Below, in pieces: positions 24,782 through 55,873 of a DNA stretch of 64,000 nucleotides. Within the stretch, counting starts at the first letter, position 1, and each line of letters starts with the position of its first letter. Origin of the DNA: Pseudomonadota bacterium. GTDB lineage: Bacteria; Campylobacterota; Campylobacteria; Campylobacterales; Sulfurimonadaceae. Both the position numbers and the translations under genes were made by a program. The stretch is from positions 75,005 through 139,004 of the forward strand of contig JAZDQA010000004.1 in NCBI GenBank assembly GCA_043797085.1, written 5' to 3'. The notes beneath the pieces are model-generated. The model did not search any database. It worked only from the letters and a program-made list of their open reading frames with translations, and was not told where the DNA came from.

Positions 24782-24795
24782 TTGATGCAGGTCAA
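24782..24795 (-). promoter_or_regulatory. Fnr/Nss-type box, cytochrome c553 promoter
   Basis: TTGAT-GCAG-GTCAA; minus-strand TATAAT at 24754-24759, 22 nt away. Confidence 0.75.
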
Positions 24796-24801
24796 GAGCC
24801 G

Positions 24802-25467
24802 TTACGATCGTAGGGTTATATGCGGGGCTAGTCTTTCATAGTCAACACGACGATTTGATGATGAAAGGTTTCCTATCGTTTTCATTCCCCCTTGAAAAAT
24901 CTGTACGTAATATTCGCGATTATATCCCCTACGCTTTAAGATCTTTGCCATGGTGATAATATCTTCTTCGTCTAGCAATTCTGGATGAAATGTTGTTCGT
25001 ACTTCAAAATCAATGCCACTATGATGAAGTATTTTAAAACTCTCCCAAAAACGTTTTTCGCTTCCGCCACCGCAGATTTCCCCCATTTTTGCTTCAGGGG
25101 CTTTGTAGTCTAGGGCAATATAATCAATAAGTTTGTTGTCGATTAGCACTTTAATCACATCAGGACGCATACCGTTGGTGTCGAGTTTGATTTTATATCC
25201 CAGTGTTTTTATAGAACGACAAAAAGCCAGAAGATGAGGGTAGGTCGTGCATTCGCCGCCACTAAGTACGACGCCTTCCAGCAGTCCTTGGCGACGGCGT
25301 AAAAAAGCAAGCGCTTCCTCTTCATCTATATGTGCAGTACCGAATACAATATCAGGATTGTAGCAGTAAACGCATCGCAGATTGCACCCTGCAAACCAAA
25401 AAATAGCCGCAGGAGTGTCGGGGAAATCGAGAAGGGTAAACGGGGTGATGTCGTAGAGTGCTTTCAT
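24802..25467 (-). CDS. nrdG: anaerobic ribonucleotide reductase activating enzyme (radical SAM)
   Basis: GCNLRCVYCYNP (CxxxCxxC), SGGE, KLDTNG; downstream of nrdD. Confidence 0.92.
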   Translation of the reverse strand: MKALYDITPFTLLDFPDTPAAIFWFAGCNLRCVYCYNPDIVFGTAHIDEEEALAFLRRRQGLLEGVVLSGGECTTYPHLLAFCRSIKTLGYKIKLDTNGMRPDVIKVLIDNKLIDYIALDYKAPEAKMGEICGGGSEKRFWESFKILHHSGIDFEVRTTFHPELLDEEDIITMAKILKRRGYNREYYVQIFQGGMKTIGNLSSSNRRVDYERLAPHITLRS

Positions 25468-25583: not shown

Positions 25584-25748
25584 CTAGCTGGCTTTTAAAC
25601 ACTCTTTAAAATACATTCGATCTTTATGCTCTTGTTTTTTTCCGATATTAAAACTCTCGACGGGGCGATGATACCCCATCACTCTTGTGTACACCATACA
25701 ACGTGTTCGTTTGCTTTCTTGGCTTTTCAGCACCATTTCTGTATTCAT
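25584..25748 (-). CDS. stand-alone glycyl-radical domain of class III RNR (54 aa)
   Basis: Manual translation MNTEMVLKSQESKRTRCMVYTRVMGYHRPVESFNIGKKQEHKDRMYFKECLKAS. ATGA overlap with the nrdD stop; strong SD AAGGAGGT just upstream. Confidence 0.88.
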   Translation of the reverse strand: MNTEMVLKSQESKRTRCMVYTRVMGYHRPVESFNIGKKQEHKDRMYFKECLKAS

Positions 25749-27847
25749 GCAACCTCCTTGGATAAGATTAATTCGTCACATTTCGGGCAAAACTCATGTT
25801 CGCCGTGTAGATAGCCGTGCATCGGACACACAGAAAAAAGCGGTGTGATGGTGATATAGGGCAATCGGTGATGAGTTAAGACATTTTTGACCATCCGTCT
25901 ACATGCTTCGATGGTTCCGATGCGCTCACTCATATAGAGATGCAACACCGTTCCCCCTGTATATTTACACTGAAGTTCGTCTTGGAGTTCCAGTGCCTCA
26001 AAGGGGTCGTCGGTATAGGCAACTGGGATTTGGGAGCTGTTGGTGTAATAAATGTTGTCACCTTCTCCTGCTTGTAAAATGTCGGGATAACGTTTTTTAT
26101 CCTCTTTGGCAAAACGATACGTCGTCCCCTCGGCGGGTGTTGCTTCCAGATTGTACAAATTACCGCTGCGCTCTTGATAACCTCGGATGATATTACGCAT
26201 TTTTTCTAAAATATCCAGTGAAAACTCCACTCCCCATGCAGTGGATAAATCCTCTGTATCACCGCTAAAATTACGAACCATTTCGTTCATCCCGTTGACT
26301 CCGATGGTGGAAAAATGGTTATTGAATCCTTTTAAATAGCGTGCAGTATAAGGATAAAGTCCCCGCTCGAACATCTCGTTTACAAAGACTCGCTTTTTCT
26401 CCAGCGTTGAATAGGCAATTTCCATTAGCACATCCAGTGCCTCAAAAAACCGATCTTTATCTCCCGTGTACAAATAGCCTAAGCGTGCCATATTGATGGT
26501 AACGACGCCGATGCTTCCCGTCATTTCGGCACTGCCGAACAGTCCATTTCCACGCTTTAGAAGTTCTCGCAAATCAAGCTGTAAGCGACAGCACATACTG
26601 CGTACCGCTCCCGGTTTATATGCATTGGGGTTTTCTATTTTATTTCCATTTTCATCTTTTAGATATTGGCTGCCGATAAAGTTTTGAAAATAGCTCGAAC
26701 CGATTTTGGCAGTGTTTTCGAACAAAATATCGGTGTTTTCACCGTACCAGTCGAAATCTTCGGTGATATTGACCGTGGGGATTGGGAACGTAAAGGGCTG
26801 TCCGCCACTGTCGCCCTCGGTCATAATCTCATAGTAGGCTTTGTTAATAACGTTCATCTCTGCTTGAAAGTCACCGTATGTCAGGGCTTCGAGAGAATGT
26901 TTTCCTCTCTCAAATAACTTGCGTTGATGATGTGCGGTTGCACTGATTTGCGAAAAAAGATGGTGATCATTATAGGTGGGAATTTGCCCCGCTAAATCCT
27001 CAGGAACAACCCAGTCGAGGGTAATATTCGTAAAAGGAGATTGTCCCCAGCGGGCTGGGACGTTGAGATTGTAGACAAAACTTCGTATCGCTTTTTTCAC
27101 ATCATCCGCACTCAAAGCATCGATAAATACATAAGGAGCCAAATAGGTATCGAATGAGCTAAATGCTTGAGCTCCTGCCCATTCGGATTGCAGTATTCCT
27201 AAAAAATTTGCCATTTGTCCCAATGCTTCACGCAAATGACGGGGAGGTGCGCTCTCAACACGTCCTCGAACGCCGTTAAACCCTTCGTTGAGCAATGCAC
27301 GTAAACTCCATCCGGCACAATATCCCGTCAGACAATCAAGATCGTGGATATGGATATCACCATTGCGATGAGCCGCTCCCTCTTGGGGTGAGTAGATGGT
27401 ATCGAGCCAAAAGTTTGCAACTACTTTTCCTGCTAGATTGTTGATAAGTCCTGCATTGGAATATCCTGTATTGGCATTGGCATTGATGCGCCAGTCCGTT
27501 TTATAGATGTATTCCTGAACGCTTTGGGTGGAGTTTACGAATGTGGTGTCGGGTAATAAACCTGCGACGTGTTCACGCTGCATTTTGTGTAAAAATCGGT
27601 AAGTGATAAACGATTTCATCACCGTAAACTCACCCGAATTATGGAGCTCTTCTTCGATGATGTCTTGAATCTCTTCTACATTCCAAAGAGGCTTGGTCTC
27701 TAATCTCTCTAAAAGACATTTTAGTGCGATTTGATTGTAGGGGCGTGAGACACTTTCAAACCCTTTTTTGATTGCATCTACAATCTTATAGAGATGAAAG
27801 AGTTCTGTTGATCCATCGCGTTTACAAACACGTCTAGCTACCCCCAT
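25745..27847 (-). CDS. nrdD: class III (anaerobic) ribonucleoside-triphosphate reductase, large chain lacking the glycyl-radical loop
   Basis: N-terminal ATP cone (KRDGS), IHDL..GYCAG, RSMCCRL finger loop, EATPAEG. Ends at the CPMH...CPKC metal site with no RVxGY. Confidence 0.93.
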   Translation of the reverse strand: MGVARRVCKRDGSTELFHLYKIVDAIKKGFESVSRPYNQIALKCLLERLETKPLWNVEEIQDIIEEELHNSGEFTVMKSFITYRFLHKMQREHVAGLLPDTTFVNSTQSVQEYIYKTDWRINANANTGYSNAGLINNLAGKVVANFWLDTIYSPQEGAAHRNGDIHIHDLDCLTGYCAGWSLRALLNEGFNGVRGRVESAPPRHLREALGQMANFLGILQSEWAGAQAFSSFDTYLAPYVFIDALSADDVKKAIRSFVYNLNVPARWGQSPFTNITLDWVVPEDLAGQIPTYNDHHLFSQISATAHHQRKLFERGKHSLEALTYGDFQAEMNVINKAYYEIMTEGDSGGQPFTFPIPTVNITEDFDWYGENTDILFENTAKIGSSYFQNFIGSQYLKDENGNKIENPNAYKPGAVRSMCCRLQLDLRELLKRGNGLFGSAEMTGSIGVVTINMARLGYLYTGDKDRFFEALDVLMEIAYSTLEKKRVFVNEMFERGLYPYTARYLKGFNNHFSTIGVNGMNEMVRNFSGDTEDLSTAWGVEFSLDILEKMRNIIRGYQERSGNLYNLEATPAEGTTYRFAKEDKKRYPDILQAGEGDNIYYTNSSQIPVAYTDDPFEALELQDELQCKYTGGTVLHLYMSERIGTIEACRRMVKNVLTHHRLPYITITPLFSVCPMHGYLHGEHEFCPKCDELILSKEVA

Positions 27848-27932: not shown

Positions 27933-27946
27933 TTGACTTGGGTCAA
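27933..27946 (-). promoter_or_regulatory. Fnr/Nss-type box, nrdD promoter
   Basis: TTGAC-TTGG-GTCAA; minus-strand TACAAT at 27905-27910 (22 nt gap). Confidence 0.8.
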
Positions 27947-28076: not shown

Positions 28077-29420
28077 TTAGAATTTTAAAGAAGCGATAAC
28101 ACGGAAAGTATCCGTAGTTTTGTCATTATTATCATTAGCTTTAACATCTTTATCAAACTGAGTATAGATAGCGGTTAAATCAACAGCTCCAACTTTTGTA
28201 GCTGCGGTAACATCCCATGCAGTAAAGTCTGTATTTTGAGTACTAAGACCTGCTACTAAACCTGCTGTTCCACCATTGTTACCAGTCTCTGCTTGTGCAT
28301 AACTAGCTGACAATGCAACACCTGGAACCATCTTAGTAGAAGCACCGATTTTCCATGCATCTGTATCCGGTGCTGCTGCAATCTCGCCATCCATATAGAT
28401 ACTACCTAAAGTAGTATACACACTTGATTTATCACCTGTTGCAACGTTCGCAAAACCTAAAGTACCGGCACTAACTGTTGAATATGCTGCATAAAGATTT
28501 ACACCTGCAATATCAACCGCAGCTTTAAGTGCAAATACATCAGTATTTCTATCAGCTGCACCTGTTCCAACATCTGGCATCATGCCTGCGTATTGAACAC
28601 CGATATTAACCATGTCGATAACTTTTGTGTCTGCTTGCAACCAGTATGCATCCGCAACTTGAACAACATCATAATACCATGCTTGTACAGTTGTATTTGG
28701 AAGTGATTTATTGACAGCTGCAAATGCATACGCGCCATCGGTTGCGAATGTACTAAAAGTACCATCTTTTGCGACGGTTGTATTACGACCAGTTACGAGA
28801 GGTCCTGCAGCATCTGGATCACCCAATAAACCAACACCATTATGCTTTCCAACCCATGCAGCTACCAACGTTGTATTAGGAAGGTCATTATTTAACAATA
28901 CTGCCGCTTCAAACGTGTTATCTACAACGTTCCATGTTTCTGTAAATGCAAGTGGAGTATTCAATGCTTGACGACCGATTTTAGCCGTAGTTTTTCCAGC
29001 AGTGTAAGCCAAATACGCTTCTTCTACCCATGCTTGGTCATTCAATGATGACATATCACCACCAACAGCTGTATTTTGATAATTTGTACCATCTGCACCA
29101 ACTTTAGCCGTTGTAGTCGATCCAACCAAATTATTTTCAAGACCAAGCGTAGAAATAGCTGTTACTTTTACCCCAGCGCTAAGATTTTGCAGCAAATCAG
29201 CTGTAGCACCAACGCTTAATTTCACATCAGCGGATGAGTTAGCAGTATTGTCAAAAAAGCCTTGTGCAGCTGTTGCAGCAGGAACAGCTGTAGCTCCTCC
29301 AGAATACTCAGATGTCTGATACCAAAGCTTTGCCTCACCATTTACTTTTACGTTATCAATCGCGAACGCACTTGTTCCCAATGCCATTACGGCTACTAGA
29401 CTTAATTTTACGAGTTTCAT
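28077..29420 (-). CDS. major outer membrane porin (Campylobacterota MOMP-like)
   Basis: MKLVKLSLVA signal peptide, amphipathic beta strands, KIGRQALNTPL, C-terminal Phe. Confidence 0.85.
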   Translation of the reverse strand: MKLVKLSLVAVMALGTSAFAIDNVKVNGEAKLWYQTSEYSGGATAVPAATAAQGFFDNTANSSADVKLSVGATADLLQNLSAGVKVTAISTLGLENNLVGSTTTAKVGADGTNYQNTAVGGDMSSLNDQAWVEEAYLAYTAGKTTAKIGRQALNTPLAFTETWNVVDNTFEAAVLLNNDLPNTTLVAAWVGKHNGVGLLGDPDAAGPLVTGRNTTVAKDGTFSTFATDGAYAFAAVNKSLPNTTVQAWYYDVVQVADAYWLQADTKVIDMVNIGVQYAGMMPDVGTGAADRNTDVFALKAAVDIAGVNLYAAYSTVSAGTLGFANVATGDKSSVYTTLGSIYMDGEIAAAPDTDAWKIGASTKMVPGVALSASYAQAETGNNGGTAGLVAGLSTQNTDFTAWDVTAATKVGAVDLTAIYTQFDKDVKANDNNDKTTDTFRVIASLKF

Positions 29421-29494: not shown

Positions 29495-29508
29495 TTGACT
29501 TAGGTCAA
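29495..29508 (-). promoter_or_regulatory. Fnr/Nss-type box, porin promoter
   Basis: TTGAC-TTAG-GTCAA; minus-strand TACAAT at 29466-29471 (23 nt gap). Confidence 0.75.
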
Positions 29509-31278: not shown

Positions 31279-31887
31279 CTATAGTCCGTTTCCGACTTTG
31301 ACACCGATGTCAAGTTCATCCATGAGATACGATGACTTTTTATGCTTTTGACCTTTTTTATCGGTATAGTCCGGTTTGAAACTGCTCTCTACTCGCAGTT
31401 TCCCTTGGGTTTGCGGTGCATGGCATTGGGTACAGTTGTAACGTCCTTGCCAGAGTTGACCATGCAAATCTTTTTTGATAATAACATCATTGCTTTCAGA
31501 TTTGAAGTTATCATCTTCATCGGATTCTACCGCCGGTCTAAAGCTCGTGAAATGCGATTTTGGTATCGAAGTTGCCCCAACACTGGGAGCAATTTCAGGC
31601 ATGTGACATCCCAGACACGCATTGTTATTTTTATCAATCTCGCCTAGACTGTCAATTTCATGAGGAATCATCGGCGGTGCATTGGTATACGCACGCGGAA
31701 TTTTCTTTGACGTTCCGGGAGCTTCAGTGTGATAGTTAGTCCCATCTGGTTTAGCCGTGTCTTCTGTGTATAAATCAGCACTGCGCATCCCCAGCTGTGT
31801 TTCATCTATTGAGGTATTTCCAGCGTAAAGACCGCTAATAATCAGTGAAGCAGCAATGAAGCTGCTCATCATTTTTCTTGCTTTCAT
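31279..31887 (-). CDS. napB: periplasmic nitrate reductase diheme cytochrome c subunit
   Basis: APPMIPH, CLGCH, CTQCH. Confidence 0.93.
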   Translation of the reverse strand: MKARKMMSSFIAASLIISGLYAGNTSIDETQLGMRSADLYTEDTAKPDGTNYHTEAPGTSKKIPRAYTNAPPMIPHEIDSLGEIDKNNNACLGCHMPEIAPSVGATSIPKSHFTSFRPAVESDEDDNFKSESNDVIIKKDLHGQLWQGRYNCTQCHAPQTQGKLRVESSFKPDYTDKKGQKHKKSSYLMDELDIGVKVGNGL

Positions 31888-32702: not shown

Positions 32703-33502
32703 AATCCTCCTTCGTCATTGAGTGAATCAAGCGCACTTTTTTCGCTTATCTTGGTTTTAGTGACCTCTATTGAGGCTCCTTCTAACCGTTTTTCGTCCGT
32801 TTTATCCCACCCTTTTATATAGTGGTCTCCCACTTTCCCCATGGCTAATGCTCTGGGGAAGATATGGATAGCGGCGATTTCAGTAACACATGCGTGCTCA
32901 CACATCCCGCATCCTGTACACACTTCCGCATGCACAACAGGTTTTAAAAATGCATGCTTCCCCGTGCGTTCATTTTTGGACGTTTCGATGGTAATGGCTT
33001 CGCCTAAAAGCGGACACGCACGGTAGCACGCATCACACTGGATTCCCCACACGGCGATACACGAACTCTCATCGACCACCGCTAAACCCATACGCGATTT
33101 ATTGATGTCCAAAACGGCTTTGCTTTTCACATAGCTGCTTACGGAGGGTTCGTTCAATGCACCGCTAGGGCACACCGGTACACACGGAATATCCGTACAC
33201 ATATAACAAGGTACAGATCGTGGGGTAAAAAACGGTGTCCCGATGGGGAGATTGTCCCCTGGACGCGCTAATATCAGAGTGTCATACGGACACGCTTCCA
33301 CACACAAACCGCACTTGATACAGTTTTTGATAAACTCCGCTTCATCCAGCGCTCCCGGAGGGCGCAAAACCAGAGGCGCTGCTTTTACTTCACCCACATA
33401 GGCACTCCAGACCAAAGCCCCCATCGCACTCAACCCAATTCCTCTCGCAATAGAGAGGAGAAAACGGCGACGATCATTAGGAGTTTTAGTACTCATGGTC
33501 AT
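32699..33502 (-). CDS. napG: quinol dehydrogenase ferredoxin subunit NapG
   Basis: Tat RRRFL, LRPPGA, CIKCGLCVEACP and further 4Fe-4S motifs. Confidence 0.95.
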   Translation of the reverse strand: MTMSTKTPNDRRRFLLSIARGIGLSAMGALVWSAYVGEVKAAPLVLRPPGALDEAEFIKNCIKCGLCVEACPYDTLILARPGDNLPIGTPFFTPRSVPCYMCTDIPCVPVCPSGALNEPSVSSYVKSKAVLDINKSRMGLAVVDESSCIAVWGIQCDACYRACPLLGEAITIETSKNERTGKHAFLKPVVHAEVCTGCGMCEHACVTEIAAIHIFPRALAMGKVGDHYIKGWDKTDEKRLEGASIEVTKTKISEKSALDSLNDEGGL

Positions 33503-36291
33503 TACGCTTTATAGATTTTGACGGCACATTTTTTGTGGTCGATTTGTTTAGAAATCGGACACGTGTGATCCAAACATACTTTGTTGATAAATACTTTTTC
33601 ATCAAACCATGGTACGAATACCAATCCTTTTGGAGGACGGTTACGACCACGAGTTTCGACGTGTGCTTTTACTTTACCACGGCGTGATTCTACCCACACC
33701 ATCTCGCCACGCTTCACTCCGCGCTTTTGTGCATCATCAGGGTGCATATAACACAATGCCTCCGGAACCGCACGATAAAGCTCAGGAACACGCATCGTCA
33801 TGGTACCGCTGTGCCAATGCTCGAGTACACGACCGGTACAAAGCCAAATGTCATAGTTTTTATCAGGTACTTCGGTTGGTTCCATATACGGACGGAAAAA
33901 GATTTTGGCTTTGTTATCCAAATTCACTTTTGCACTGTTCGTAACCCCTTTAAGATTTCCGGTTGGAATGTCTTTGAACGCATGGCCGTAGAATGCGAAT
34001 GCACCGTTGTTTGCTTTTTTCGCATACGGATCGTATTTCGCGTTGTAACGCCAGAACGTCTCTTTCCCATCGACAACCGGCCATTTTAGACCGCGTACAC
34101 GGTGATAGGTATCGAAATCGGCGTAGTCATGTCCATGCCCGTCACCAAATTTACGATACTCTTCCCAAAGATATTTTTGGATGAAGAAGCCATATCCTTT
34201 GAACGGTTTTCCATCGCTTCCGATAACATTACGTTTATCGCCTTCAACTTCAGAGTTTTGATAGCCTTTGCCCACTGGATCAGGCCATTTAAATGCTTTT
34301 GCCCGTGCATTGCCAAAAAGGACATCGTACAAGGTTGAGTTATCGTTGTATCCCATTGCTTTGGCTTTGCCCATAACGTCAGGTAATCCGCCATCCAGTC
34401 CTGGAATTTTTTGCGCTCCCCATACTTCTTTGATCGTAAAGCGTTTGGAAAGCTCTACAAACTGCCATGTATCGGACATCGAATCACCCATTGGAGTGAC
34501 TTGCTGACGCCAGTGTTGTGTTCGGCGTTCTGCATTACCGTACGCTCCCCATTTCTCATACATCATCGCACTTGGTAAAATCAAATCGGATACTTTTGCT
34601 GAAATTCCCGGATAACCATCGGACGTTACGATAAAGTTGTCCATGTTTCGAGCTGCTTTAATCCAGTGATCTGCATTACCGGTATCTTGATACGGATTAC
34701 AAACACTGACCCATGCAAATTTCACCTTGCCATCTTCGAGATCACGGTGGATCTGAGTAAAGTGCGATCCTGCTTTTGGGTTAATCGTTCCATCAGGAAT
34801 CGCCCAGATGCCTTCTGCCATTTTACGGTGAGCAGGGTTCATGACGACCATGTCCGCAGGAAGTCGGTGACTGAATGTTCCTACTTCACGAGCTGTTCCA
34901 CACGCGGATGGTTGACCTGTGAGCGAGAATGCACCATTACCCGGTTTGGCTTGTTTACCCAGTAGGAAATGCACCATGTAAGCTTGTTCATTAACCCATG
35001 TTCCACGTGTATGCTGATTAAAGCCCATCGTCCAGAATGTCAAACATTTGCGTTTTTTCTCGATGTAAAGATCTGCCATTTTTTTAAGTTTTGCTTTGTA
35101 GCTTTCCATGCTCTCATCTGCATCACCTTTGGAAACGTGTGCAACATAATCGAGGGTATAGGGAGCAAGACCTTTTTTGAACTCTTCAAAGGTGATTTTC
35201 CAATGTTTGTTCGCATCATTGGTATTTTTCATCTCCAGCGTATCGCCCTCTTTGTAGCCTAAATATCCAAGACTGACTCCCTCATCGGCAGTTAGAACTT
35301 TAGATTTTTGTTTGGCTGCGGTATCGAGCTCTTTCGCCCCATATTTAGGGTGGTGAATGTCTTCGCGAAGCCCGTATCCGATGTCTACAGGACCGGTTGC
35401 AAATACGATATTTTTATCTAAGAACTCTTTGTCCATGGCTTCAGGATGATTGTACACAATCTCACGAGCGATGTAGTTCCAAATCGCCAAATCGGTATTA
35501 GGCTTGAAGATGATTTCGACATCCGCTAGGTCCATCGTACGATGTTTGTAGGTCGATAGAACAACAACTTGTACTTTATCAGGATTACTAAGTTTACGAT
35601 CACTGACACGTGACCAGAGGATAGGGTGCATTTCCGCCATATTTGAACCAAACGCAACAATCGTTTCAGCAAGTTCAATGTCCTCATAACAGCCCGATGG
35701 TTCATCCGCTCCAAAAACGTTCATGAATCCAGTAACAGCAGATGCCATACAAAGACGTGCATTAGGATCGATGTTGTTGGTACGGAATCCCGCTTTCATT
35801 AGCTTGAGTGCTGCGTGACCCTCCATCGCCGTTTGCTGACCTGAGCTGAACATCGCGATGCCGGTAGGTCCTTTTTCTTTGAGAGCTGATTTGATGTGTA
35901 TTTCCATCTCATCAAAAGCACGTTTCCAGCTGACAGGTTTGAATTTGCCCTGCTTATCAAATTGGCCTTTATCGTTCATGCGCAATAACGGCTGAGTAAG
36001 ACGATCCGCACCGTACATGATTTTGGCGTTAAAGTATCCTTTGATACAGTTAAGACCGCGATTAACCGGAGCCAATGGATCACCCTTGACTGCGACGATA
36101 CGATCGTCTTTGGTTGCCATCATGATACCGCATCCCGTTCCGCAAAAACGGCATGCCGCTTTATCCCAACGCCATCCTGCCTGACCCTGAGCTGATGCTG
36201 CTTCGACTGAAGCAGGTACTGCCATTCCTATTGCTGTTGCGGCAGACGCTGCTGCTGCACTTTTTAAAAATTCTCTTCTATCCAATGACAT
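33502..36291 (-). CDS. napA: periplasmic nitrate reductase catalytic subunit
   Basis: Tat signal [14 protein letters not shown]...[12 protein letters not shown] (Mo-Cys), TGRVLEHWH. Start set to ATG 36291. Confidence 0.98.
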
Positions 36292-36412
36292 AAAAGCCCC
36301 CTTAGTGGAATCACTTGTTCGTTCCAAAATGGACGAACTCCTTAAGTTTTCCTGATGCTATGAAATAACTCATGCACTTCAAACATTATAAAGAAATAGG
36401 AGAAAAAAGGTT

Positions 36413-36426
36413 TTGACTTAGGTCAA
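36413..36426 (-). promoter_or_regulatory. Fnr/Nss-type box, napA promoter
   Basis: TTGAC-TTAG-GTCAA; minus-strand TATAAT at 36385-36390 (22 nt gap), placing the box near -41.5. Confidence 0.85.
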
Positions 36427-36444
36427 GAAACGAAAAAATGCCGA

Positions 36445-37341
36445 TTAGGCATTTCGTATTTCGTTGGCTTTTTGGAGGTTGTTTTTAAGTTTTTTAAGAC
36501 GCAGAGAGGTTTGGTGCAGTTCTTCGCTTACTTGGATCATTACATCTTCACTTTGTTCTAGCAGTTCTTCGGCTTCGGGGGTGGAACTCATGAGACTGGC
36601 AGTTGCAGCTTCACTCTTCTCGACCGCATCCGTAGCACTTTGGAGCGCTTCTTCGACATTACGTAAAAAATACTCGATATGAGAGCAGGCAATATCGAGT
36701 TCGTTTCCACTATGGGTGAGATTTTCTTCACCGCTAATACTTTTTGAATGTTCTAGGAATTTTTCAAAATTGCGTTGTATCTGTAATGTTGTCCGCGCCA
36801 TGTAGAGGATAATAGCAAAAGAGATGAGGGCAAGAGTAATTTGAATACGGTGCGCCAGTACTCGTTTTTCCATCATCGATTCTTCGTATTGGTTCACTGC
36901 TTTGTCCATCAATGCCAGCGTTTGATCTCCATTCTCATAAATGGTTTTAAGATCATACAAGTTGTGATCCCCTTGTAAATAACGATCGATCAGTCCTCCC
37001 ATGCGATTCCAATGTCTATGCACTTCCATCATGGTAATATCGATTTTTTCATTTTTAAAAGCATGATAGTCTGAAGTCGTTGCACTAAGCTGTTTAAAAT
37101 TACGATCAAATTCTTCTCGTGCACTTTGCAGCCGCTCGTATGCTCCATCTTCATCCACCAACAGACGGTGTAGTTCCAAGACGGTACGCTGGGAGAGCAT
37201 TCGCTGTTTTCCGGCTGTATTGATTACTTTGGCATCGAGTTTTTGAGATGAATTGAGCCAAATATCGACCATAATAATAGTAATAAGATTGATTGAGAGA
37301 ATGAGAACGATCCAACGAATTTTAGTAGATATTGATTGCAT
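36445..37341 (-). CDS. membrane protein with NarX/PilJ-type nitrate-sensing periplasmic domain and no kinase domain
   Basis: TM1, P-box-like DAKVINTAGKQRMLSQR, TM2, then about 115 aa of coiled coil only. Confidence 0.8.
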   Translation of the reverse strand: MQSISTKIRWIVLILSINLITIIMVDIWLNSSQKLDAKVINTAGKQRMLSQRTVLELHRLLVDEDGAYERLQSAREEFDRNFKQLSATTSDYHAFKNEKIDITMMEVHRHWNRMGGLIDRYLQGDHNLYDLKTIYENGDQTLALMDKAVNQYEESMMEKRVLAHRIQITLALISFAIILYMARTTLQIQRNFEKFLEHSKSISGEENLTHSGNELDIACSHIEYFLRNVEEALQSATDAVEKSEAATASLMSSTPEAEELLEQSEDVMIQVSEELHQTSLRLKKLKNNLQKANEIRNA

Positions 37342-38033
37342 TATAGCCCCTCCGTAAAATAGTGTGCTAACTCATCTCGTAAAAGAATGAGTGTTTTGTG
37401 ATCTTCTTCGATGATAATGCCCTTACGGATAAATTTAGCCAATACACGCGAAAGGGTAGCTGGCTGAATATTAAGACGATAGGATATTTCTTGTTTTTTC
37501 AGACTGTTATAAAGATCAAGATTTCCGTGCAGCATTTTAGCAACTTTTGCAGTGACATCGTGCACCATTCCCATCGTTACCATACAATCGATCATTTGTT
37601 TTTGATTCGCGAGAAGATTCACCAATCGAATCAGTAACGTATTGTCATTTTTTACAACCTCATTAAAAGCTTTTAAATCACACGACATCACGCGGCTGTG
37701 GGAGAGAAACTCAACATTGCTAAAACAACTGATACGATCACAATCAAGTGAACCGATATTGGTCAGTAATGCTTGATCCTTTAAGGTATACAAAAAAACT
37801 TCGTTATCAAATCGATCCACTTTATAAAACTTCACTTCTCCCTCAAGGAGAAAATAAACACGATTAATATCATCATCTTCATACACTAAGATATCCGATG
37901 CTTCATAATTTTTTATTTTTGTATTAATGGATAATGGGGATAGTTTTTGCGGATCACATCCTTTAAAAAAATCAAGCTGTTCCAACATCAATGGAGTATT
38001 CCTTACGTAATAATCTATTTTAAATGATAACAC
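37341..38033 (-). CDS. Crp/Fnr-family transcriptional regulator
   Basis: YFLLEGEVKFYK cNMP-binding fold, C-terminal HTH QEISYRLNIQPATLSRVL. TAATG coupling to the sensor gene; start uncertain (38033/37991/37988). Confidence 0.9.
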   Translation of the reverse strand: MLSFKIDYYVRNTPLMLEQLDFFKGCDPQKLSPLSINTKIKNYEASDILVYEDDDINRVYFLLEGEVKFYKVDRFDNEVFLYTLKDQALLTNIGSLDCDRISCFSNVEFLSHSRVMSCDLKAFNEVVKNDNTLLIRLVNLLANQKQMIDCMVTMGMVHDVTAKVAKMLHGNLDLYNSLKKQEISYRLNIQPATLSRVLAKFIRKGIIIEEDHKTLILLRDELAHYFTEGL

Positions 38034-38051: not shown

Positions 38052-38065
38052 TTGACATAAATCAA
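38052..38065 (+). promoter_or_regulatory. Fnr/Nss-type box, moaA promoter
   Basis: TTGAC-ATAA-ATCAA; plus-strand TACCAT at 38088-38093 (22 nt gap). Confidence 0.75.
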
Positions 38066-38106
38066 GAACATCCATTTGAAGATAAGCTACCATAAGCCAA
38101 GTATAA

Positions 38107-39090
38107 ATGAAGAAGGCTGACCCAATGTTGATAGACAGTTTTAATCGTGAAGTCAATTATTTACGTGTATCCGTCACCGAGCGATGCAATTTCAGGTGTC
38201 GTTACTGCATGGCAGAAAAGCCCTTTAGCTGGGTGCCAAAAGAAAATCTTCTTAGTTACGAAGAGCTTTTTGCTTTTATCAAAATCAGTATTGACAGTGG
38301 TATTCGTAAAATCCGTATTACAGGCGGAGAGCCAACCACGAGAGAAAATCTCGATGAGTTGATTGCTATGATACACACCTATGCACCCGAAGTCGATATC
38401 GGGCTTACTAGCAATGGTTTTTTACTTCCCGCAATGGCCCAAAGGCTCAAAAGGGCAGGGTTAAAACGGGTCAATATTTCACTTGACTCACTGGAAAAAG
38501 AGACATTGCATTATATCGCCCAAAAAGATGTTCTTGAATCCGTATTAAAAGGGATAGATGCCGCAATCGATGCCGGATTATCCGTCAAAATCAACAGCGT
38601 TATTTTGCGCGGAATCAATGATCACGAAATAGGGTCTTTGTTCGAATATGCCCAAAATATCGGTGCGCAAATACGTTACATCGAATACATGGAAAACATT
38701 CATGCCTCCGATGGGATAAAAGGTCTTGCAAGCTATGAAATACTCTCAGAACTCTCTAAAACTCATTCATTCTCTCGTATCGTAAACGAAAAAAGCGGTC
38801 CCGCAAATTTGTATGAAACGTCCAAGGGATACCATTTCGGTACGATTGAACCCCATCGTCACGATTTTTGTGCAACCTGCGACCGTCTTCGTTTGAGTGC
38901 TGAGGGTGATTTGATCGGGTGTTTGTATTTCGAGGGGGCAAAAAACATCAAAGAAGCAATCCGTAACGGTGATACTCAAGAGGCTTATAAAATGTTAGCC
39001 GAAGTGGTCGATAACAAGCCCGAAAAAAATCTCTGGGGAATCGAAAACGTGGAAATTTCCTCGCGTGCGTTTTATCGAACGGGAGGATGA
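38107..39090 (+). CDS. moaA: GTP 3',8-cyclase (molybdopterin biosynthesis)
   Basis: YLRVSVTERCNFRCRYC, TGGEP, FCATCDRLR...GCL, C-terminal GG. Start 38107 or 38125. Confidence 0.96.
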   Translation: MKKADPMLIDSFNREVNYLRVSVTERCNFRCRYCMAEKPFSWVPKENLLSYEELFAFIKISIDSGIRKIRITGGEPTTRENLDELIAMIHTYAPEVDIGLTSNGFLLPAMAQRLKRAGLKRVNISLDSLEKETLHYIAQKDVLESVLKGIDAAIDAGLSVKINSVILRGINDHEIGSLFEYAQNIGAQIRYIEYMENIHASDGIKGLASYEILSELSKTHSFSRIVNEKSGPANLYETSKGYHFGTIEPHRHDFCATCDRLRLSAEGDLIGCLYFEGAKNIKEAIRNGDTQEAYKMLAEVVDNKPEKNLWGIENVEISSRAFYRTGG

Positions 39091-39098
39091 AAGTTCCC

Positions 39099-39848
39099 TT
39101 ATGCCTCCAGATAGTATCCAACTCCTGAAGCATTTTTGATGACATCTTCGGAAAGCTTTTTACGTAAACGCCAGACTAGAGTTCGCACACTATTGACACT
39201 CACATATTCTTCTCCCCAAACATACGACATCGCGAGTTCAAAATCGACTGTACGTCCAAAATTAACAGCCAGTAATCGGATAAAAGCATTCTCTGTTTTA
39301 CTCAAATAAATTTTTTGATTTTTATAAAAAGTCTCTCCCAGTGAAATGTCATGTCGATAATATTTTCCAAATTCGACAATAGGTTTATCGGAGCTTTTTT
39401 TAACAAAGAGAAGCTTTTCAAGATCCTCTTTGTTGTGTTTTAACTCATCGATATTGACGAATCTTTTTTGCTCTTCTTCGAAACGATACAGTGCCATTTG
39501 GATTGTTGTGTGAAGATTGAGTGGTTCAAAAGGTTTGACTATATAGCCGTAAGGCTCTGTCTGCTTGGCATTTATAAGTGTATTACTTCCAGAATGGGCG
39601 GTGAGATAGATAAAAGGGAGCGGCATTTTAGTACGAATAAATTGCGCTATTTCTATTCCTTGCTTCTGGCCTTTTAGCTCTATGTCGATGAGTACGATGT
39701 CAGGATAGTAAATTTTTAGTTTTTTTTGAGCACTTTGCTTATCATTAGCGACTGAGACTACCTTATATCCGAATGTCTCCAACGATAGGGTTAAGTTGAG
39801 AGCTGTAACATCATCATCTTCAACGATAAGTATTTTAATGGATGCCAC
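39099..39848 (-). CDS. orphan response regulator (REC plus OmpR-type winged HTH)
   Basis: ILIVEDD, DIVLIDI (phospho-Asp), KPF, VRTLVWRLRKKL, GVGY. Confidence 0.9.
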   Translation of the reverse strand: MASIKILIVEDDDVTALNLTLSLETFGYKVVSVANDKQSAQKKLKIYYPDIVLIDIELKGQKQGIEIAQFIRTKMPLPFIYLTAHSGSNTLINAKQTEPYGYIVKPFEPLNLHTTIQMALYRFEEEQKRFVNIDELKHNKEDLEKLLFVKKSSDKPIVEFGKYYRHDISLGETFYKNQKIYLSKTENAFIRLLAVNFGRTVDFELAMSYVWGEEYVSVNSVRTLVWRLRKKLSEDVIKNASGVGYYLEA

Positions 39849-39929: not shown

Positions 39930-39943
39930 TTGATATAGATCAA
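39930..39943 (-). promoter_or_regulatory. Fnr/Nss-type box, response regulator promoter
   Basis: TTGAT-ATAG-ATCAA; minus-strand TATTAT at 39902-39907 (22 nt gap). Confidence 0.7.
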
Positions 39944-39946
39944 AGT

Positions 39947-41701
39947 TTAGAGCTCCCAATATTTCTTGCTAGTCATTAATTTCTTGATTTGCGGAGAAAG
40001 GTTTTGATCGGCTTGCCCAATCGTCCAAAGTTTTTTACTCAAAGAGCGTATAGCATTTTCAAAATTATTGTCAATCAGAGATAAAAAGGATTCGCCGGAA
40101 AAAGACTCTTCCAACAACTTTCTTTCTGCGTCAAAACGACAAAAAGCAATTTTGTAAAAATGGGTATTATCCAAACTGTGCAACATCATTTTTGACCCTG
40201 TATCAAGTTTCGCCAAAAACCATAACGCACAAAACTCCTCTGAATAATGGTTGAGGACGTGGGTAGAAAAGTCTTCAAAGCTCTCCTGTTCACTGGCTTC
40301 ATACTCATCGATAATCATCTCGATAACATTACCGATGTGTTCGATGGGAACCATCGTAAAAAGCTCTCTTCCCACACTGATCCCATTCGAGTGTTGTGCT
40401 CCAAAATAGATGCGTGCGGCTTTATCAACCTCTCCAAAACTGCTCGTACGCAATCCTATCAGCCCAATATCGCAGTGCTGATGTCTTCCACATCCTTTGG
40501 CACAGCCTGAAACACCCACTTGGATACGATGCTTTTGAATTTTATCCAGAGGCAATAAAAGTGCTTCATTTTTTAAATCCCAAAACGAAAATGGGCAATA
40601 ACTGCTCCCTGCACACACAATTACTGTGGCGCTTTTGGGGAGATTTTCAAAAGGGGATGTTTTTTCAAAAAGCCCTAAAATGACAATATTTTGCTGGGTA
40701 GTGAGTCGCACTTCTGCTTCGTTTATATGGGCAAAAGTGGCGATTCGTGTAAGCTCATCGGGTGTTACACGTCCAAAATCACTCTCATAGCAAAAAGCAT
40801 AGCTCCCGTCTTGAAGTTTTTCACTCTTCGAAAATTTTCTTTTTTCCAGTATCAGCGTCCCTGCAGTTTGCCACGTTTTTTGATACTCTTGTGCAATGTA
40901 TTCTTTAAACATTTCGATGCCGATCGTCTCAAGGAGATAAAAAAGACGTATTTGTGAGCGTGTCGTTCGTAACCCATGTTTGTTAAATGCCTCGATAAAA
41001 GCACTAAAAAAAACTACGACTTCATCCGTGAGCAAGAATATATTGGCACAGCGGGCTATCTCAGTATTTTTGCCGCCCATATAGACGTTAAATCCGAAAA
41101 TTTTATCTTTTTGTGCCAATCCAAAATAGAGATCATTAGCAAAAAATGAGGTAACATTCGCTCGATTTCCAGAAATACCGGTTGAAATTCTCCGTGGTAA
41201 CATCCCAATTTGACGAGGAATTTTGAGGATAGTCTGTTCCATTTTCACAATAAGGGGATATGCCTCAATCTCGCAGGTTTCACCCAGACCGTCATACACA
41301 TCCGTCACGATATTTCGAACATTATCGCCAAACGTCTGCCATGTGGTGATTCCTGTTGCGTTAATTTGATGAAAAACACTCAATACGTTCTCGCTGGTAA
41401 GTCCATGCAGTTGTATTCCTGCACGTGCGGTCAGGATGATGTCAAGAGAATGAGACTTTGCAATGTGCGCAATGGAGTGAAGTTGTTGAACAGTTATACG
41501 ACCTGCCGTGATGCGCAAACGAAGAGTAAAATCTTCTTCATTCAGAGGGTTATTAAAAATACCAAAATCTTGAAGATAAAAAATGTCGGCTTCACTGAGT
41601 GCACTAAAATCAAGAGTTTCAATTTGCGGATAATAGTCATACGGAATCATTTTCGCTTTGTAGCGTTCCCGTTTATTCAGCTTTTTTTCGACAATACTCA
41701 T
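39947..41701 (-). CDS. ferredoxin-dependent siroheme nitrite/sulfite reductase
   Basis: LRLRITAG, LTARAGIQ, GDNVRN, VRLTTQQN; siroheme/4Fe-4S ligands CAGSSYC and SGCAKGCG. Confidence 0.88.
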   Translation of the reverse strand: MSIVEKKLNKRERYKAKMIPYDYYPQIETLDFSALSEADIFYLQDFGIFNNPLNEEDFTLRLRITAGRITVQQLHSIAHIAKSHSLDIILTARAGIQLHGLTSENVLSVFHQINATGITTWQTFGDNVRNIVTDVYDGLGETCEIEAYPLIVKMEQTILKIPRQIGMLPRRISTGISGNRANVTSFFANDLYFGLAQKDKIFGFNVYMGGKNTEIARCANIFLLTDEVVVFFSAFIEAFNKHGLRTTRSQIRLFYLLETIGIEMFKEYIAQEYQKTWQTAGTLILEKRKFSKSEKLQDGSYAFCYESDFGRVTPDELTRIATFAHINEAEVRLTTQQNIVILGLFEKTSPFENLPKSATVIVCAGSSYCPFSFWDLKNEALLLPLDKIQKHRIQVGVSGCAKGCGRHQHCDIGLIGLRTSSFGEVDKAARIYFGAQHSNGISVGRELFTMVPIEHIGNVIEMIIDEYEASEQESFEDFSTHVLNHYSEEFCALWFLAKLDTGSKMMLHSLDNTHFYKIAFCRFDAERKLLEESFSGESFLSLIDNNFENAIRSLSKKLWTIGQADQNLSPQIKKLMTSKKYWEL

Positions 41702-41778: not shown

Positions 41779-41792
41779 TTGATGTAAGTCAA
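41779..41792 (-). promoter_or_regulatory. Fnr/Nss-type box, siroheme reductase promoter
   Basis: TTGAT-GTAA-GTCAA; minus-strand TAAAAT at 41751-41756 (22 nt gap). Confidence 0.75.
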
Positions 41793-53462: not shown

Positions 53463-55103
53463 TTACGCACCTGGAAGATCCATGCGGTGCTCAATAGAAT
53501 AAGTAAATGTTGGTGTTGTTAGCCCAGTAATTTGGGTAATGTATTCACCTGTTTTTGCGTCAAATACTAATATTCGTCCACATGTCCAATCCGAAACATA
53601 CGTATGCTCCCCATGAGCAGCAGGTTCTCCATGCAGTAATCGAGGGACAATAAGTTCGCCTTTTTCATTTTTTACGGCACCAATATTCCATTCTTTTATC
53701 ACTTTGAGATTGTTCGGATCGATGAGCTGCACTTTGCCCTCTTTAGTCGCTTGGATAATGCGTCCGACCATCAACGTTTCTTTGTTGACTAGATGGATTT
53801 TATTATAATTGTCTTCTCCGCCGATAACGTTGTCCGCCCAAAGAAAAGGTGTATGTTCATTGGTTCCGATAAATAGTCCGCCGCCGGCTGTTTTGGTGTG
53901 TTTTAATACATGCCATTGGTTGTCCCAAACGGTTACATCGCCTACATTCATGTTGACCGTTGCATGAAGCTGTTTACCTAATTTTTCATTGTACCAGCTT
54001 GAACCTTGTCCAGGATGCGGCTTGCTTCCCGGTCCGGTATAGACTTTATCTGTTAATGTTTTGGTTTTAAAGTCTACTATCCCCATGACATCACTTCCTT
54101 GAGAAGCTATCATGTAGTAGCGTCCTACCTCTTCTCCCTCATTCAAGAAGGCATCGTGTAAGATTTTACCGATTTTAGGAATATCTCCGACGATAGGGAA
54201 ATCAGGCTTACTGTAATCGACGATATAGACGTGTCCTGCATCTTTAAGTGCAAATGCAATATATGGACCGTATGGAGTGTCGGCGATCGATGCAACACGA
54301 GAGGAGCCGATTTTGCCATCCATGTCTTCGACTTGATCGGTCGCATAGACTTTCAACGGTTTAAGTGTCATAGCATCCAAAAGTACGGCACCGCCTGGAA
54401 CATAGTTACCCGCCATGAGATAGCGACCATCGGGCGTACAAGCAAGTCCGCGACTGTCGCTGCCGACACGGATTTTAGCGATCATTGGTTGTCCTGGGGC
54501 ATTTAGATCAAACATATTGACCCATCCGTCACGACTGATGTTATACACGTAGCGAGGGATACGTTTATTGACTACGGTTACGTGAGTCGCGAAACCTGAG
54601 CTGTGTTTGGAGAGGACTTTGTTTGTTGTACCGTCAATAAATCCTACTTTTGAGGCATCCCGCTCGGTAAAGACCACGATATCCTGTACGCTTTTTACGT
54701 CCGTTGGTTTCGGATATTTTTTGTACAATTCTTCACGGTCTTGGAGGATTTGATGTGTAGCAACAACATCTTCCATGGTGAGTTTCGTTAACTGTTTTGC
54801 TTCATATTTTAAGAGATATTGCACCATTTTATCTGCATCATCACTGGTGAACGTACTCTTAAAATCAGGCATTGCAGTACCGGCTCTTCCGTTAAGTATC
54901 GTATCTCTCAGAAAATAATCTCCTTTTTTACCAATGGCTTTTGGGTCAAGAGAACTTCCTACACCACCTTCGTGATTGGGGCCATGACACCCTTGACACT
55001 CTTTGTCAAACATTTTTGCGACGTCCATTTTCGAATCGCCAGCCATTAGTGGAAGGGTTATAAAAAGAGCGCTCGCCAGGGTTGCTCCAAGAATCTTTTT
55101 CAT
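53463..55103 (-). CDS. nirS: cytochrome cd1 nitrite reductase
   Basis: Signal peptide, CQGCH c-domain with AMP Met ligand, d1 propeller with GFATH (d1 ligand His), ILHD and PHPGQG (catalytic His pair). Confidence 0.88.
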   Translation of the reverse strand: MKKILGATLASALFITLPLMAGDSKMDVAKMFDKECQGCHGPNHEGGVGSSLDPKAIGKKGDYFLRDTILNGRAGTAMPDFKSTFTSDDADKMVQYLLKYEAKQLTKLTMEDVVATHQILQDREELYKKYPKPTDVKSVQDIVVFTERDASKVGFIDGTTNKVLSKHSSGFATHVTVVNKRIPRYVYNISRDGWVNMFDLNAPGQPMIAKIRVGSDSRGLACTPDGRYLMAGNYVPGGAVLLDAMTLKPLKVYATDQVEDMDGKIGSSRVASIADTPYGPYIAFALKDAGHVYIVDYSKPDFPIVGDIPKIGKILHDAFLNEGEEVGRYYMIASQGSDVMGIVDFKTKTLTDKVYTGPGSKPHPGQGSSWYNEKLGKQLHATVNMNVGDVTVWDNQWHVLKHTKTAGGGLFIGTNEHTPFLWADNVIGGEDNYNKIHLVNKETLMVGRIIQATKEGKVQLIDPNNLKVIKEWNIGAVKNEKGELIVPRLLHGEPAAHGEHTYVSDWTCGRILVFDAKTGEYITQITGLTTPTFTYSIEHRMDLPGA

Positions 55104-55231: not shown

Positions 55232-55873
55232 TTAAGAAAAAAGTTCTTTTAGTCCCTCTCGATTCAAGATGGTGAAATTTTTCCCCTCATCACTGATGAG
55301 TCCGAGAATCTTGATTTTTTTGAAAGAGCGTGAGAGTGTTTCGGGGGTAAGTCCTAAAATCGTTGCAATCTTATGTCTCTTGGTTGAATCGGAAATATCT
55401 CCATTTTCATATAAGAATTTAGCCACACGGGAGGTTGCATCCAGTGCTAACCGTGTGGTAATAATATCTTCGAGGTATTTGAGCTTTTGAGTCAGCGATT
55501 TTATCAATTCAAAGGATACGGTAGGATTTTTTAGAAAATCACGCTCAAAAATAGGATAATCGATTTCCAAAATACTTCCATCCGTTTGAAATTCTGCGGT
55601 TGCCGGGAATGGAATATGGTGAAGATTGGCCATTTCTGCTACTAACGAAACGGGATAAAAATAGTGCAGTACGATTTCGTTTTCTTTCATATCTGTTTTG
55701 TAGCCTTTGAGGACACCGTCTAGTAATATATAAAGTTTATCCGAATGAGTCCCCTCATAAAAGAGGATCTCACCATTATTAAAGGATCGTAGTTTTACGA
55801 TAGAGGCTAAATGAATTAAATCTGTTTCGCTCAGATGTGAAAAAAGAAAAATACTTTTTAATCGGTTCACCAT
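55232..55873 (-). CDS. Crp/Fnr-family regulator (DNR/Nss-like)
   Basis: LYILLDGVLKGYK, AEMAN, FPATA, HTH LGLTPETLSRSF. ATG 55873 overlaps the receptor stop (TAATG). Confidence 0.92.
   Translation of the reverse strand: MVNRLKSIFLFSHLSETDLIHLASIVKLRSFNNGEILFYEGTHSDKLYILLDGVLKGYKTDMKENEIVLHYFYPVSLVAEMANLHHIPFPATAEFQTDGSILEIDYPIFERDFLKNPTVSFELIKSLTQKLKYLEDIITTRLALDATSRVAKFLYENGDISDSTKRHKIATILGLTPETLSRSFKKIKILGLISDEGKNFTILNREGLKELFS

Follow-up and report, generated by a model that had tools for sequence, protein, structure and literature searches.

We analysed a 64,000-nucleotide (nt) window of a Sulfurimonadaceae genome (contig JAZDQA010000004.1 of assembly GCA_043797085.1, positions 75,005 to 139,004), in which the gene for a putative membrane-bound nitrate sensor lies between a Crp/Fnr-type regulator gene (crp) and the gene cluster for periplasmic nitrate reductase (nap). 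The minus strand carries, in order, crp, the sensor gene, a 117-nt spacer, napA, and the rest of the nap cluster (Table 1). A first-pass annotation, made from the letters alone, had described a 298-amino-acid (aa) sensor with two transmembrane helices and a P-box-like segment that keeps a nitrate-binding arginine, translationally coupled to the regulator gene, and we found both the protein and the coupling at this locus: base 37341 is common to the crp stop codon and the sensor start codon, within a TAATG. A terminator-like hairpin with a T-run separates the crp–sensor unit from the napA promoter. The napA cluster is the likely target operon of the pair. (The GTG at 38033 probably makes crp too long; the spacing of its promoter elements, alignments with homologues, and an AAGGA ribosome-binding site point to ATG 37988 as the probable start, for a protein of about 215 aa.)

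Table 1. Coordinates of the genes, protein segments, and regulatory features at the crp–sensor–nap locus, in positions of the 64-kb window (ORF, open reading frame; nt, nucleotides; aa, amino acids).
Feature	Position	Strand	Basis or remark
Crp/Fnr regulator gene (probably of the NssA-type subgroup)	38033-37341	minus	ORF list, 230 aa from GTG 38033
Kinase-less membrane sensor gene	37341-36445	minus	ORF list, 298 aa
TAATG stop/start overlap, crp/sensor	37339-37343	minus	plus-strand bases read 'catta'
GGAGGGG Shine-Dalgarno for the sensor gene, inside the end of crp	37347-37353	minus	6 nt upstream of ATG
N-box I40-Q51 (INTAGKQRMLSQ)	37189-37224	minus	I40-N-T-A-G-K-Q-R-M-L-S-Q51
HAMP-like segment, about residues 183-232: AS1, connector ending GNELD, AS2 (IACSHIEYFLRNV)	36646-36795	minus	
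C-terminal helical hairpin, about residues 233-298	36448-36645	minus	AlphaFold2 model, family conservation
Best-conserved cytoplasmic motif, S264-E-D-x-x-I-Q/E-x-x-E-E-L275	36517-36552	minus	just past the hairpin turn
Weak terminator-like hairpin (8 pairs, 3 G-C), then T-run	36435-36455	minus	overlaps the sensor stop codon
Fnr/Nss-type perfect palindrome TTGACTTAGGTCAA, napA promoter	36413-36426		sequence read
napA -10 element TATAAT	36390-36385	minus	22 nt past the TTGACTTAGGTCAA box
napA, periplasmic nitrate reductase, first gene of the nap cluster	33502-36327	minus	Pfam Molybdopterin, Molybdop_Fe4S4, Molydop_binding, TAT_signal
NapB	31279-31887		within the nap cluster
Second box TTGACATAAATCAA, crp/moaA divergent intergenic region	38052-38065		sequence read
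moaA, molybdenum cofactor biosynthesis, divergent from crp	38107-39090	plus	Pfam Radical_SAM, Mob_synth_C

The sensor is organised as a first transmembrane segment, a PilJ four-helix bundle, a second transmembrane segment, a HAMP-like segment, and a helical hairpin (hydropathy places the transmembrane segments at residues 11–29 and 161–179). PilJ (PF13675) is its sole Pfam domain, at residues 28–125 (59.3 bits, where the cut-off is 26.6), and was matched in 22 of 22 diverse sensor homologues. The P-box-like segment DAKVINTAGKQRMLSQR covers residues 36–52. Inside it, I40–Q51 fits exactly the N-box pattern [IVL]-[ND]-x-A-G-x-Q-R-M-L-[ST]-Q (PMC6381276). This pattern was defined from homologues of the ligand-binding domain of the Pseudomonas aeruginosa chemoreceptor McpN, which is specific for nitrate and loses nitrate binding when its arginine is mutated (PMC6381276). 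In the McpN structure (6GCV), the nitrate-contacting arginine (R61, in the segment 'INVAGAQRMLSQ') aligns with R47 of the sensor. R47 and G44 form the sensor's G-x-x-R nitrate-contact motif, which is the nitrate site of NarX and NarQ (PMC8199190). N41, G44, R47, M48, and Q51 are invariant across the 22 homologues, whose identity is as low as 23%. Nitrate is the putative ligand of the N-box.

The fold agrees with the motif. An AlphaFold2 model of the sensor has a mean confidence (pLDDT) of 81, with 86–94 over the PilJ domain, and helices at residues 4–61, 67–86, 98–122, 128–203, 214–250, and 257–297. The last helix of the bundle continues through the second transmembrane segment to residue 203, and is followed by a connector, the 214–250 helix, a turn, and the 257–297 helix. 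By Foldseek, the model superposes on the ligand-binding domain of McpN (6GCV, TM-score 0.77), on a sensor–transmembrane fragment of NarQ (6XYN, TM-score 0.79), and on the sensor–transmembrane–HAMP part of NarQ (5IJI, TM-score 0.70 over 238 columns). With hhalign, the family profile aligned to a McpN-like methyl-accepting chemotaxis protein (MCP) with a Pfam HAMP domain, at 99.5% probability and through both the second transmembrane segment and HAMP. The Pfam HAMP model matched one of the 22 family members (E = 0.017).

The sensor ends about 115–119 residues past the second transmembrane segment, and a comparison of the tail with Pfam and NCBIfam gave no domain, only coiled-coil noise and the weak HAMP match in one of the 22 members. 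The tail motif of Table 1 (in the wider family form, S/T-E-D-x-x-I-E/Q-x-x-E-E/D-L) occurs in 109 of the 129 unique homologues, and E265, D266, I269, E273, L275, and L282 vary little or not at all among family members. We propose that the tip of the hairpin, with its acidic SEDxxI..EEL motif, is the partner-binding site.

No HisKA, HATPase, MCPsignal, GGDEF, or DNA-binding domain was found with Pfam in the sensor or in 21 diverse homologues, which upholds the earlier description of the sensor as kinase-less. (The same annotation had called it NarX-type. This is imprecise: the solved structures within E < 1 of the family profile are PilJ and McpN, and NarX and NarQ lie above that limit.) A HisKA_3 kinase was not found in the source genome either, which is 95.9% complete, contains nap and nirS, and has no other gene with a PilJ domain. 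The sensor looks to be derived from a chemoreceptor, because its longer next-ranked relatives are PilJ proteins that mostly carry MCPsignal. (We checked the domains of nine such matches; all have PilJ, with MCPsignal in seven, a marginal sub-threshold MCPsignal in one, and PilJ–HAMP without it in one.) We rejected a function as a chemoreceptor, as MCPsignal (PF00015) had no match at E ≤ 0.1 in 22 of 22 family members, although the same model gives 13 sites elsewhere in the genome.

The sensor belongs to a real and conserved family of kinase-less proteins and is not a pseudogene. Its 75 close homologues (63–99% identity) are 187–305 aa long, and the full-length ones are 298–305 aa. A search of 1.8 billion representatives gave full-length relatives of 295–345 aa with one PilJ domain, or about 420–465 aa with two, and all of them have the same short tail. 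The 129 unique complete homologues, with identities down to 23%, have two transmembrane segments and a tail of 119–152 aa past the second one. The strict N-box is present in 84 of these, and many have E in place of Q (AGKERML); a relaxed N-box is present in 122, and the other seven differ at one position and retain G-x-x-R-M-L. The homologues come from six or more families of Campylobacterota, with intact frames, and the translational coupling is kept.

Co-occurrence of the two genes, which the first-pass annotation had named as a check on its reading, was surveyed from both sides. From the sensor side, we first examined 111 loci (from Sulfuricurvum, Sulfurimonas, Arcobacter and its relatives, Sulfurospirillum, and Helicobacter), and each of them has a Crp/Fnr gene immediately upstream of the sensor gene and on its strand; so does every later Campylobacterota locus with the tail and with upstream sequence. 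PilJ proteins from Scalindua, Nitrospinota, and Deltaproteobacteria have neither the tail nor a Crp neighbour. At the 129 unique junctions, the genes overlap by 1–14 nt in 73 (mostly ATGA) and are separated by 0–13 nt in 43 (together 116 of 129) and by more than 13 nt in 9; 4 are of other types. From the regulator side, we searched 401 sampled genomes of the phylum with a profile of the paired Crps (E ≤ 1e-60) and found 97 Crp genes of the subgroup in 89 genomes. A sensor-family ORF lies directly downstream of 95 of them (78 by coordinates, one in genome G304, whose match begins within the ORF, and 16 of 18 fetched regions).

The genes 3' of the pair vary. They include napA in about half to 60% of loci, and otherwise norCB, nosZ of the cytochrome-c type, or others; in some loci, nap genes lie upstream of the pair. 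Among 195 fetched loci, moaA is present in 88, the OmpR-type response regulator found near the pair in the window in 7, and a siroheme reductase in 1. Because Crp is always adjacent while the downstream genes vary, the sensor is paired with the regulator and not with nap. Within the window's genus, the pair is found in both of the genomes that have napA and in neither of the two that do not.

The partner protein has the two domains of a Crp/Fnr regulator (cNMP_binding, PF00027, E = 1.4e-8; HTH_Crp_2, PF13545, E = 1.6e-6), and its closest solved relative is DNR of P. aeruginosa (3DKW), which aligns over the full length (E = 6e-18). The N-terminal cysteine cluster of FNR (C-x2-C-x5-C plus a central Cys) is absent from its sequence, and the consensus of the paired Crps has only two scattered cysteines. 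Its recognition helix reads QPATLSR, and the family consensus is QPETLSR. The profile of the paired Crps separates them clearly from other Crps: the partner scores 298 bits and the paired Crps score 298–316 bits, against at most 160 bits for paralogues. The source genome has three Crp/Fnr paralogues.

Three paralogues per genome are also a feature of the Nss proteins, which are Crp/Fnr regulators of N-oxide respiration and stress (PMC6682613; PMC8139620; PMC11539149). In Wolinella succinogenes, NssA is reported to up-regulate Nap, Nrf, and cNos when nitrate is present (PMC6682613), and a 2021 review noted that how the Nss factors sense nitrate, nitric oxide, and nitrous oxide needs further study (PMC8139620). 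To place the paired Crps, we used a complete, single-contig, 2.1-Mb genome of the genus Wolinella (G404), which has exactly three Crp paralogues. For each of the 129 paired Crps, the nearest of these is the paralogue that is nap-adjacent and paired with a sensor, and the median identities of the 129 to the three paralogues are 43.7, 29.7, and 24.7%. This mirrors the published pattern for the nap-adjacent Crp of Nitrosophilus labii, which has 44.8, 29.2, and 26.1% identity to NssA, NssB, and NssC (PMC11539149), and so the paired clade is probably NssA. In G404, the order is crp, 17 nt, sensor, a divergent gene for a 253-aa multi-pass membrane protein, and napA (G404:C1:1127058-1131404, L278); the 253-aa gene is absent from the Sulfuricurvum locus. 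A version of the pair with a double-PilJ sensor is present in all four of the Wolinella-genus genomes. Our full-text literature search, which did not extend to the primary Nss paper, found no paper that describes a PilJ–Crp pair in these organisms or with nap, and no mention of a membrane partner for the Nss regulators. In the supplement of the N. labii paper, the gene beside the NssA-like gene has no annotation.

Three further observations bear on whether the two proteins work together. First, their sequences diverge together. Pairwise p-distances among the Crps correlate with those among the sensor tails (r = 0.94) and with those among the periplasmic domains (r = 0.88). The partial correlation of Crp with tail is 0.71 given the periplasmic domain, and that of Crp with the periplasmic domain is 0.24 given the tail. 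As controls, the neighbours NapA and MoaA correlate with Crp at 0.82 and 0.83, and the Crp–tail correlation is 0.84 given NapA. Part of the signal may be an effect of rate class, because regulators evolve faster than enzymes. The pattern is consistent with co-evolution of Crp and tail.

Second, the pair appears to have been duplicated as a unit. The profile also recovers second-tier Crps (216–246 bits), mostly from Sulfurimonas (genus g2), followed by their own sensors of 304–330 aa. In this sister sensor, the N-box is replaced (INEQKAFTQEI, with no Gly-x-x-Arg) and the tail motif is kept (KKEDxxIExLxEL). Thirteen sister pairs lie directly upstream of nosZ (L288–L302, for example L292:2864-4477), and eight genomes have both the main pair and the sister pair. 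The sister pair fits a cognate interaction, because regulator and sensor were duplicated together and the ligand motif changed while the output motif was kept. Third, the two domain families are sometimes fused. Four Crp/Fnr–PilJ–PilJ proteins of 506–523 aa (P0254, at L193:7001-8521, and also P0261, P0263, and P0265) have two C-terminal N-box PilJ domains and no transmembrane segment, and their domain order is the same as the gene order of the crp–sensor pair. One of them, in a metagenome-assembled genome, lies among nirS, a COX1-family gene (possibly norB-like), and nosL. The fusions are probably cytoplasmic nitrate-responsive regulators.

The first-pass annotation had also reported an Fnr-type box at the napA promoter, and indeed the palindrome TTGACTTAGGTCAA is perfect. 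Given the TATAAT 22 nt further on, it is centred at about -41.5, for a predicted transcription start near 36378. A box at -41.5 is the textbook class II arrangement for Fnr. Across the family, a TTGA-N6-TCAA box lies within 250 nt past the sensor stop codon in 72 of 127 unique loci, and 0.036 such boxes are expected per 260 nt of coding DNA. The second box, TTGACATAAATCAA, is flanked at 22 nt in both directions by TAnnnT hexamers, TATCAT (38029–38024) towards crp, for which transcription is predicted to start near 38017, and TACCAT (38088–38093) towards moaA. This suggests that crp may be autoregulated and that molybdenum cofactor synthesis may be co-regulated with it. (A box upstream of crp is found in only 29 of 128 loci.) Any assignment of the three Crp paralogues to particular predicted boxes is putative.

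We propose that the two genes encode a two-protein nitrate-sensing module that works without phosphorylation and in which the sensor contacts the Crp directly; we put the chance that this is correct a little above even. Nitrate in the periplasm would bind at the dimer interface of the PilJ/N-box four-helix bundle, as it does in McpN and NarQ. The resulting change would travel via the second transmembrane segment and the HAMP-like segment to the short helical hairpin, whose conserved acidic tip would be the output. This output would act on the co-translated NssA-type regulator by protein–protein contact. The regulator, once freed or activated, would bind TTGA-N6-TCAA boxes near -41.5 at napA, and here also between crp and moaA, and would activate nitrate respiration. 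As for the sign of the contact, we lean towards an anti-activator: without nitrate, the sensor would keep the regulator bound at the membrane, and with nitrate it would let the regulator go. Sequestration and release is favoured because the regulator gene precedes the gene for a membrane sensor, the codons overlap, and autoregulation is possible, as in pairs of extracytoplasmic function (ECF) sigma factors and anti-sigma factors. The alternative form is a nitrate-dependent co-activator. We infer both the contact and its polarity from sequence. The first-pass annotation had arrived at a phosphorylation-independent module with direct contact, and our results support that reading in part. The sensor is the best candidate for nitrate sensing behind the nitrate respiration switch in Campylobacterota.

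What else could the sensor do? No enzymatic or DNA-binding function can be recognised in its tail, so it needs some partner, and this might be an unlinked one, such as a soluble kinase, a cyclic di-GMP enzyme, or a CheW/CheV-like adaptor, with the adjacency to crp reflecting co-expression only. About 12 MCPs in the genome imply chemotaxis machinery, and 1.8 kb from the pair (39099–39848) is the gene for an orphan OmpR-type response regulator. We rejected the latter as the sensor's partner because it is present in 7 of the 195 fetched loci, whereas Crp is the sole conserved neighbour. Also, no member of the family has the MCPsignal tip, the genome has no HisKA_3 kinase that was found, and co-expression alone would leave unexplained the near-obligate adjacency on the same strand, the overlapping codons, the co-duplication, and the tracking of Crp by the tail. 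Signalling through an unlinked partner is thus unlikely, but not so unlikely as to be dismissed. We give somewhat less credence to another explanation, in which the contact is real but the ligand is nitrite, another anion, or a report of Nap turnover. The G-x-x-R site of NarQ answers nitrite as well as nitrate, some PilJ domains do not bind nitrate (PMC6381276), and the strict pattern holds for 84 of 129 N-boxes, with E for Q in many. However, the sensor fits the strict N-box, which comes from homologues of a nitrate-specific domain, and the sister sensor at nosZ has lost exactly the G-x-x-R, as expected if this motif sets the ligand.

It is more doubtful still that the sensor is an accessory of N-oxide respiration that is controlled by Crp (to bind or buffer nitrate, or to organise Nap, Nor, or Nos), with Crp sensing alone. 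The pair is always found inside denitrification clusters, and Crp/Fnr proteins usually sense by their own effector domain; indeed, the closest solved relative of this one is the haem/NO sensor DNR. But strong conservation of the HAMP-like segment and the hairpin, both cytoplasmic, would make no sense in a periplasmic accessory, the constant companion of the gene is crp and not any single enzyme, the architecture is that of a transmembrane receptor, and the Crp–PilJ fusions point to a regulatory use of the domain. We consider it barely credible that the gene is a functionless remnant of a NarX-type kinase or of a chemoreceptor. Such decay would account for the missing output domain and for the nearest multi-domain relatives being full-length MCPs. 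Yet length and tail motifs are kept in the 129 unique homologues, across those six or more families, with intact frames and coupling, and the 117 nt between the sensor gene and napA contain a promoter and not remnants of domains. The first-pass annotation had named kinase-bearing homologues as what would make this a truncation; we sought them and found none, and the homologues keep the short tail. We therefore rejected the pseudogene or truncated kinase on the conservation of tail and length.

Several points weigh against a direct-contact nitrate sensor. The case for both contact and ligand is built from comparison of sequences and models. The HAMP assignment is based on similarity of profile and fold and not on the Pfam model, and the AlphaFold2 confidence in the tail, where the contact would be made, is moderate (pLDDT 56–75). 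The p-distances behind the co-divergence are not independent of each other, and the greater divergence of the periplasmic domain makes its distances noisier than those of the tail. As the fusion proteins are soluble, and their Crp part is only 21% identical to the Crp of the window, they show joint use of the two domain families and not signalling across a membrane. The link to NssA comes from a pattern of identities and not from the NssA sequence itself. Two Crp genes of the subgroup have no sensor (in genomes G011 and G377); the one in G011 scores 246 bits and lies directly upstream of napA, with no gene between them (L287, G011:C19:58500-64500). Finally, napA is present in 329 of the 401 sampled genomes, far more widely than the pair. 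In one family (f3), 151 of 158 genomes have napA and 1 of 158 has a sensor match and a subgroup Crp, and therefore nap regulation is possible without the pair.

Parts of the proposed module have parallels in known systems. McpN (PA2788) shares with the sensor the PF13675 domain, the exact N-box with the equivalent of R61, the four-helix fold, and the order of transmembrane, sensor, transmembrane, and HAMP segments; the sensor differs in lacking the PF00015 signalling hairpin, methylation, and the tip that binds CheA and CheW, and its gene is fixed beside a Crp/Fnr gene and does not feed the Che system. NarX and NarQ of Escherichia coli (5IJI, 5JEQ) are alike in the periplasmic G-x-x-R, in the superposition from the sensor domain through HAMP, and in the nitrate-dependent control of nap. 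The sensor lacks their GAF-like, DHp (HisKA_3), and ATPase domains, and has no NarL or NarP partner. On the regulator side, NssA, NssB, and NssC of W. succinogenes and NssR of Campylobacter jejuni resemble the partner in nap adjacency, in TTGA-N6-TCAA boxes, and in the number of paralogues per genome. In NasR (NIT–ANTAR), and probably in the Crp/Fnr–PilJ–PilJ fusions, a nitrate-binding helical bundle controls a nucleic-acid-binding output without phosphorylation. Those, however, are soluble single polypeptides that respond to cytoplasmic nitrate, whereas here the sensor domain is periplasmic and belongs to a separate membrane protein with a HAMP-like tail.

For the contact itself, the parallels are mechanistic only. 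ECF sigma factors with their anti-sigma factors, Mlc–PtsG, and MalT–MalK are membrane sequestration systems, and NtcA–PipX is a co-activator pair of the Crp family. The pair studied here may resemble the sigma/anti-sigma systems in its order of regulator and then membrane sensor, its overlapping codons, its possible autoregulation, and a stoichiometric contact. NtcA–PipX illustrates that a protein partner can govern a Crp-family protein, and structures of NtcA are among the solved relatives of the partner Crp. The sequestration systems have no sequence relationship with the pair and no four-helix-bundle/HAMP receptor.

If the module works as we propose, then it may be one instance of a more general architecture in Campylobacterota, in which kinase-less receptors made of a four-helix bundle, HAMP, and a hairpin each control a cognate Crp/Fnr protein by contact. 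In this view, the NssA regulon would have its missing nitrate sensor in the N-box pair at nap, and the nosZ-linked sister pair would respond to another N-oxide signal. Such pairs would duplicate together much as two-component systems do, but with no phosphotransfer, and would be previously undescribed. We hold this broader proposal more tentatively than the module itself, at slightly less than an even chance. Major denitrifiers and sulfur oxidisers of the environment belong to the Campylobacterota (Sulfurimonas, Sulfuricurvum, Arcobacter, and Sulfurospirillum), as do enterohepatic Helicobacter. If our proposal is correct, then the nitrate sensor of these organisms has a name and a simple model that can be tested, and the repertoire of HAMP receptors gains an output mode that is independent of phosphorylation. 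The pairs would also provide markers in metagenomes for regulation by nitrate, and possibly (with the sister pair) for regulation related to nitrous oxide, which is relevant to emission of that gas.

Elsewhere in the window, boxes of the form TTGAY-N4-RTCAA occur ten times, against 0.69 expected by chance (at 24782, 27933, 29495, 36413, 38052, 39930, 41779, 48903, 55204, and 58178). Most are near the starts of genes, namely nrdD, a porin gene, napA, crp/moaA, the OmpR-type regulator gene, the genes for a NirA-like reductase and LpxR, nirS, and hsp20. The box at 29495–29508 is identical to the napA box in 14 of 14 bases. It precedes the gene for a 447-aa outer-membrane porin (28077–29420, minus strand) with a weak Opr-family match and no Pfam match, which is a candidate nitrate/nitrite-inducible porin. 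The box at 27933 suggests that anaerobic deoxynucleotide supply is under the same family of regulators: the anaerobic ribonucleotide reductase NrdD is encoded at 25745–27847 (minus strand), and a radical-SAM protein that is probably its activase at 24802–25467 (minus strand). A siroheme protein similar to ferredoxin-dependent nitrite and sulfite reductases (39947–41701, minus strand; NirA family, below the equivalog cut-off) has its own box at 41779, and this NirA-like gene sits within the respiratory N-oxide island. The orphan OmpR-type regulator (minus strand) has a canonical receiver domain, no adjacent kinase, and an Fnr-type box at 39930. At 55232–55903 (minus strand), next to nirS (53463–55103), is the gene for a second Crp/Fnr paralogue, which has 28% identity to the paired regulator. 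It overlaps the end of a gene for a TonB-dependent receptor (55873–58056, minus strand), which is another coupling of a regulator with an envelope protein.

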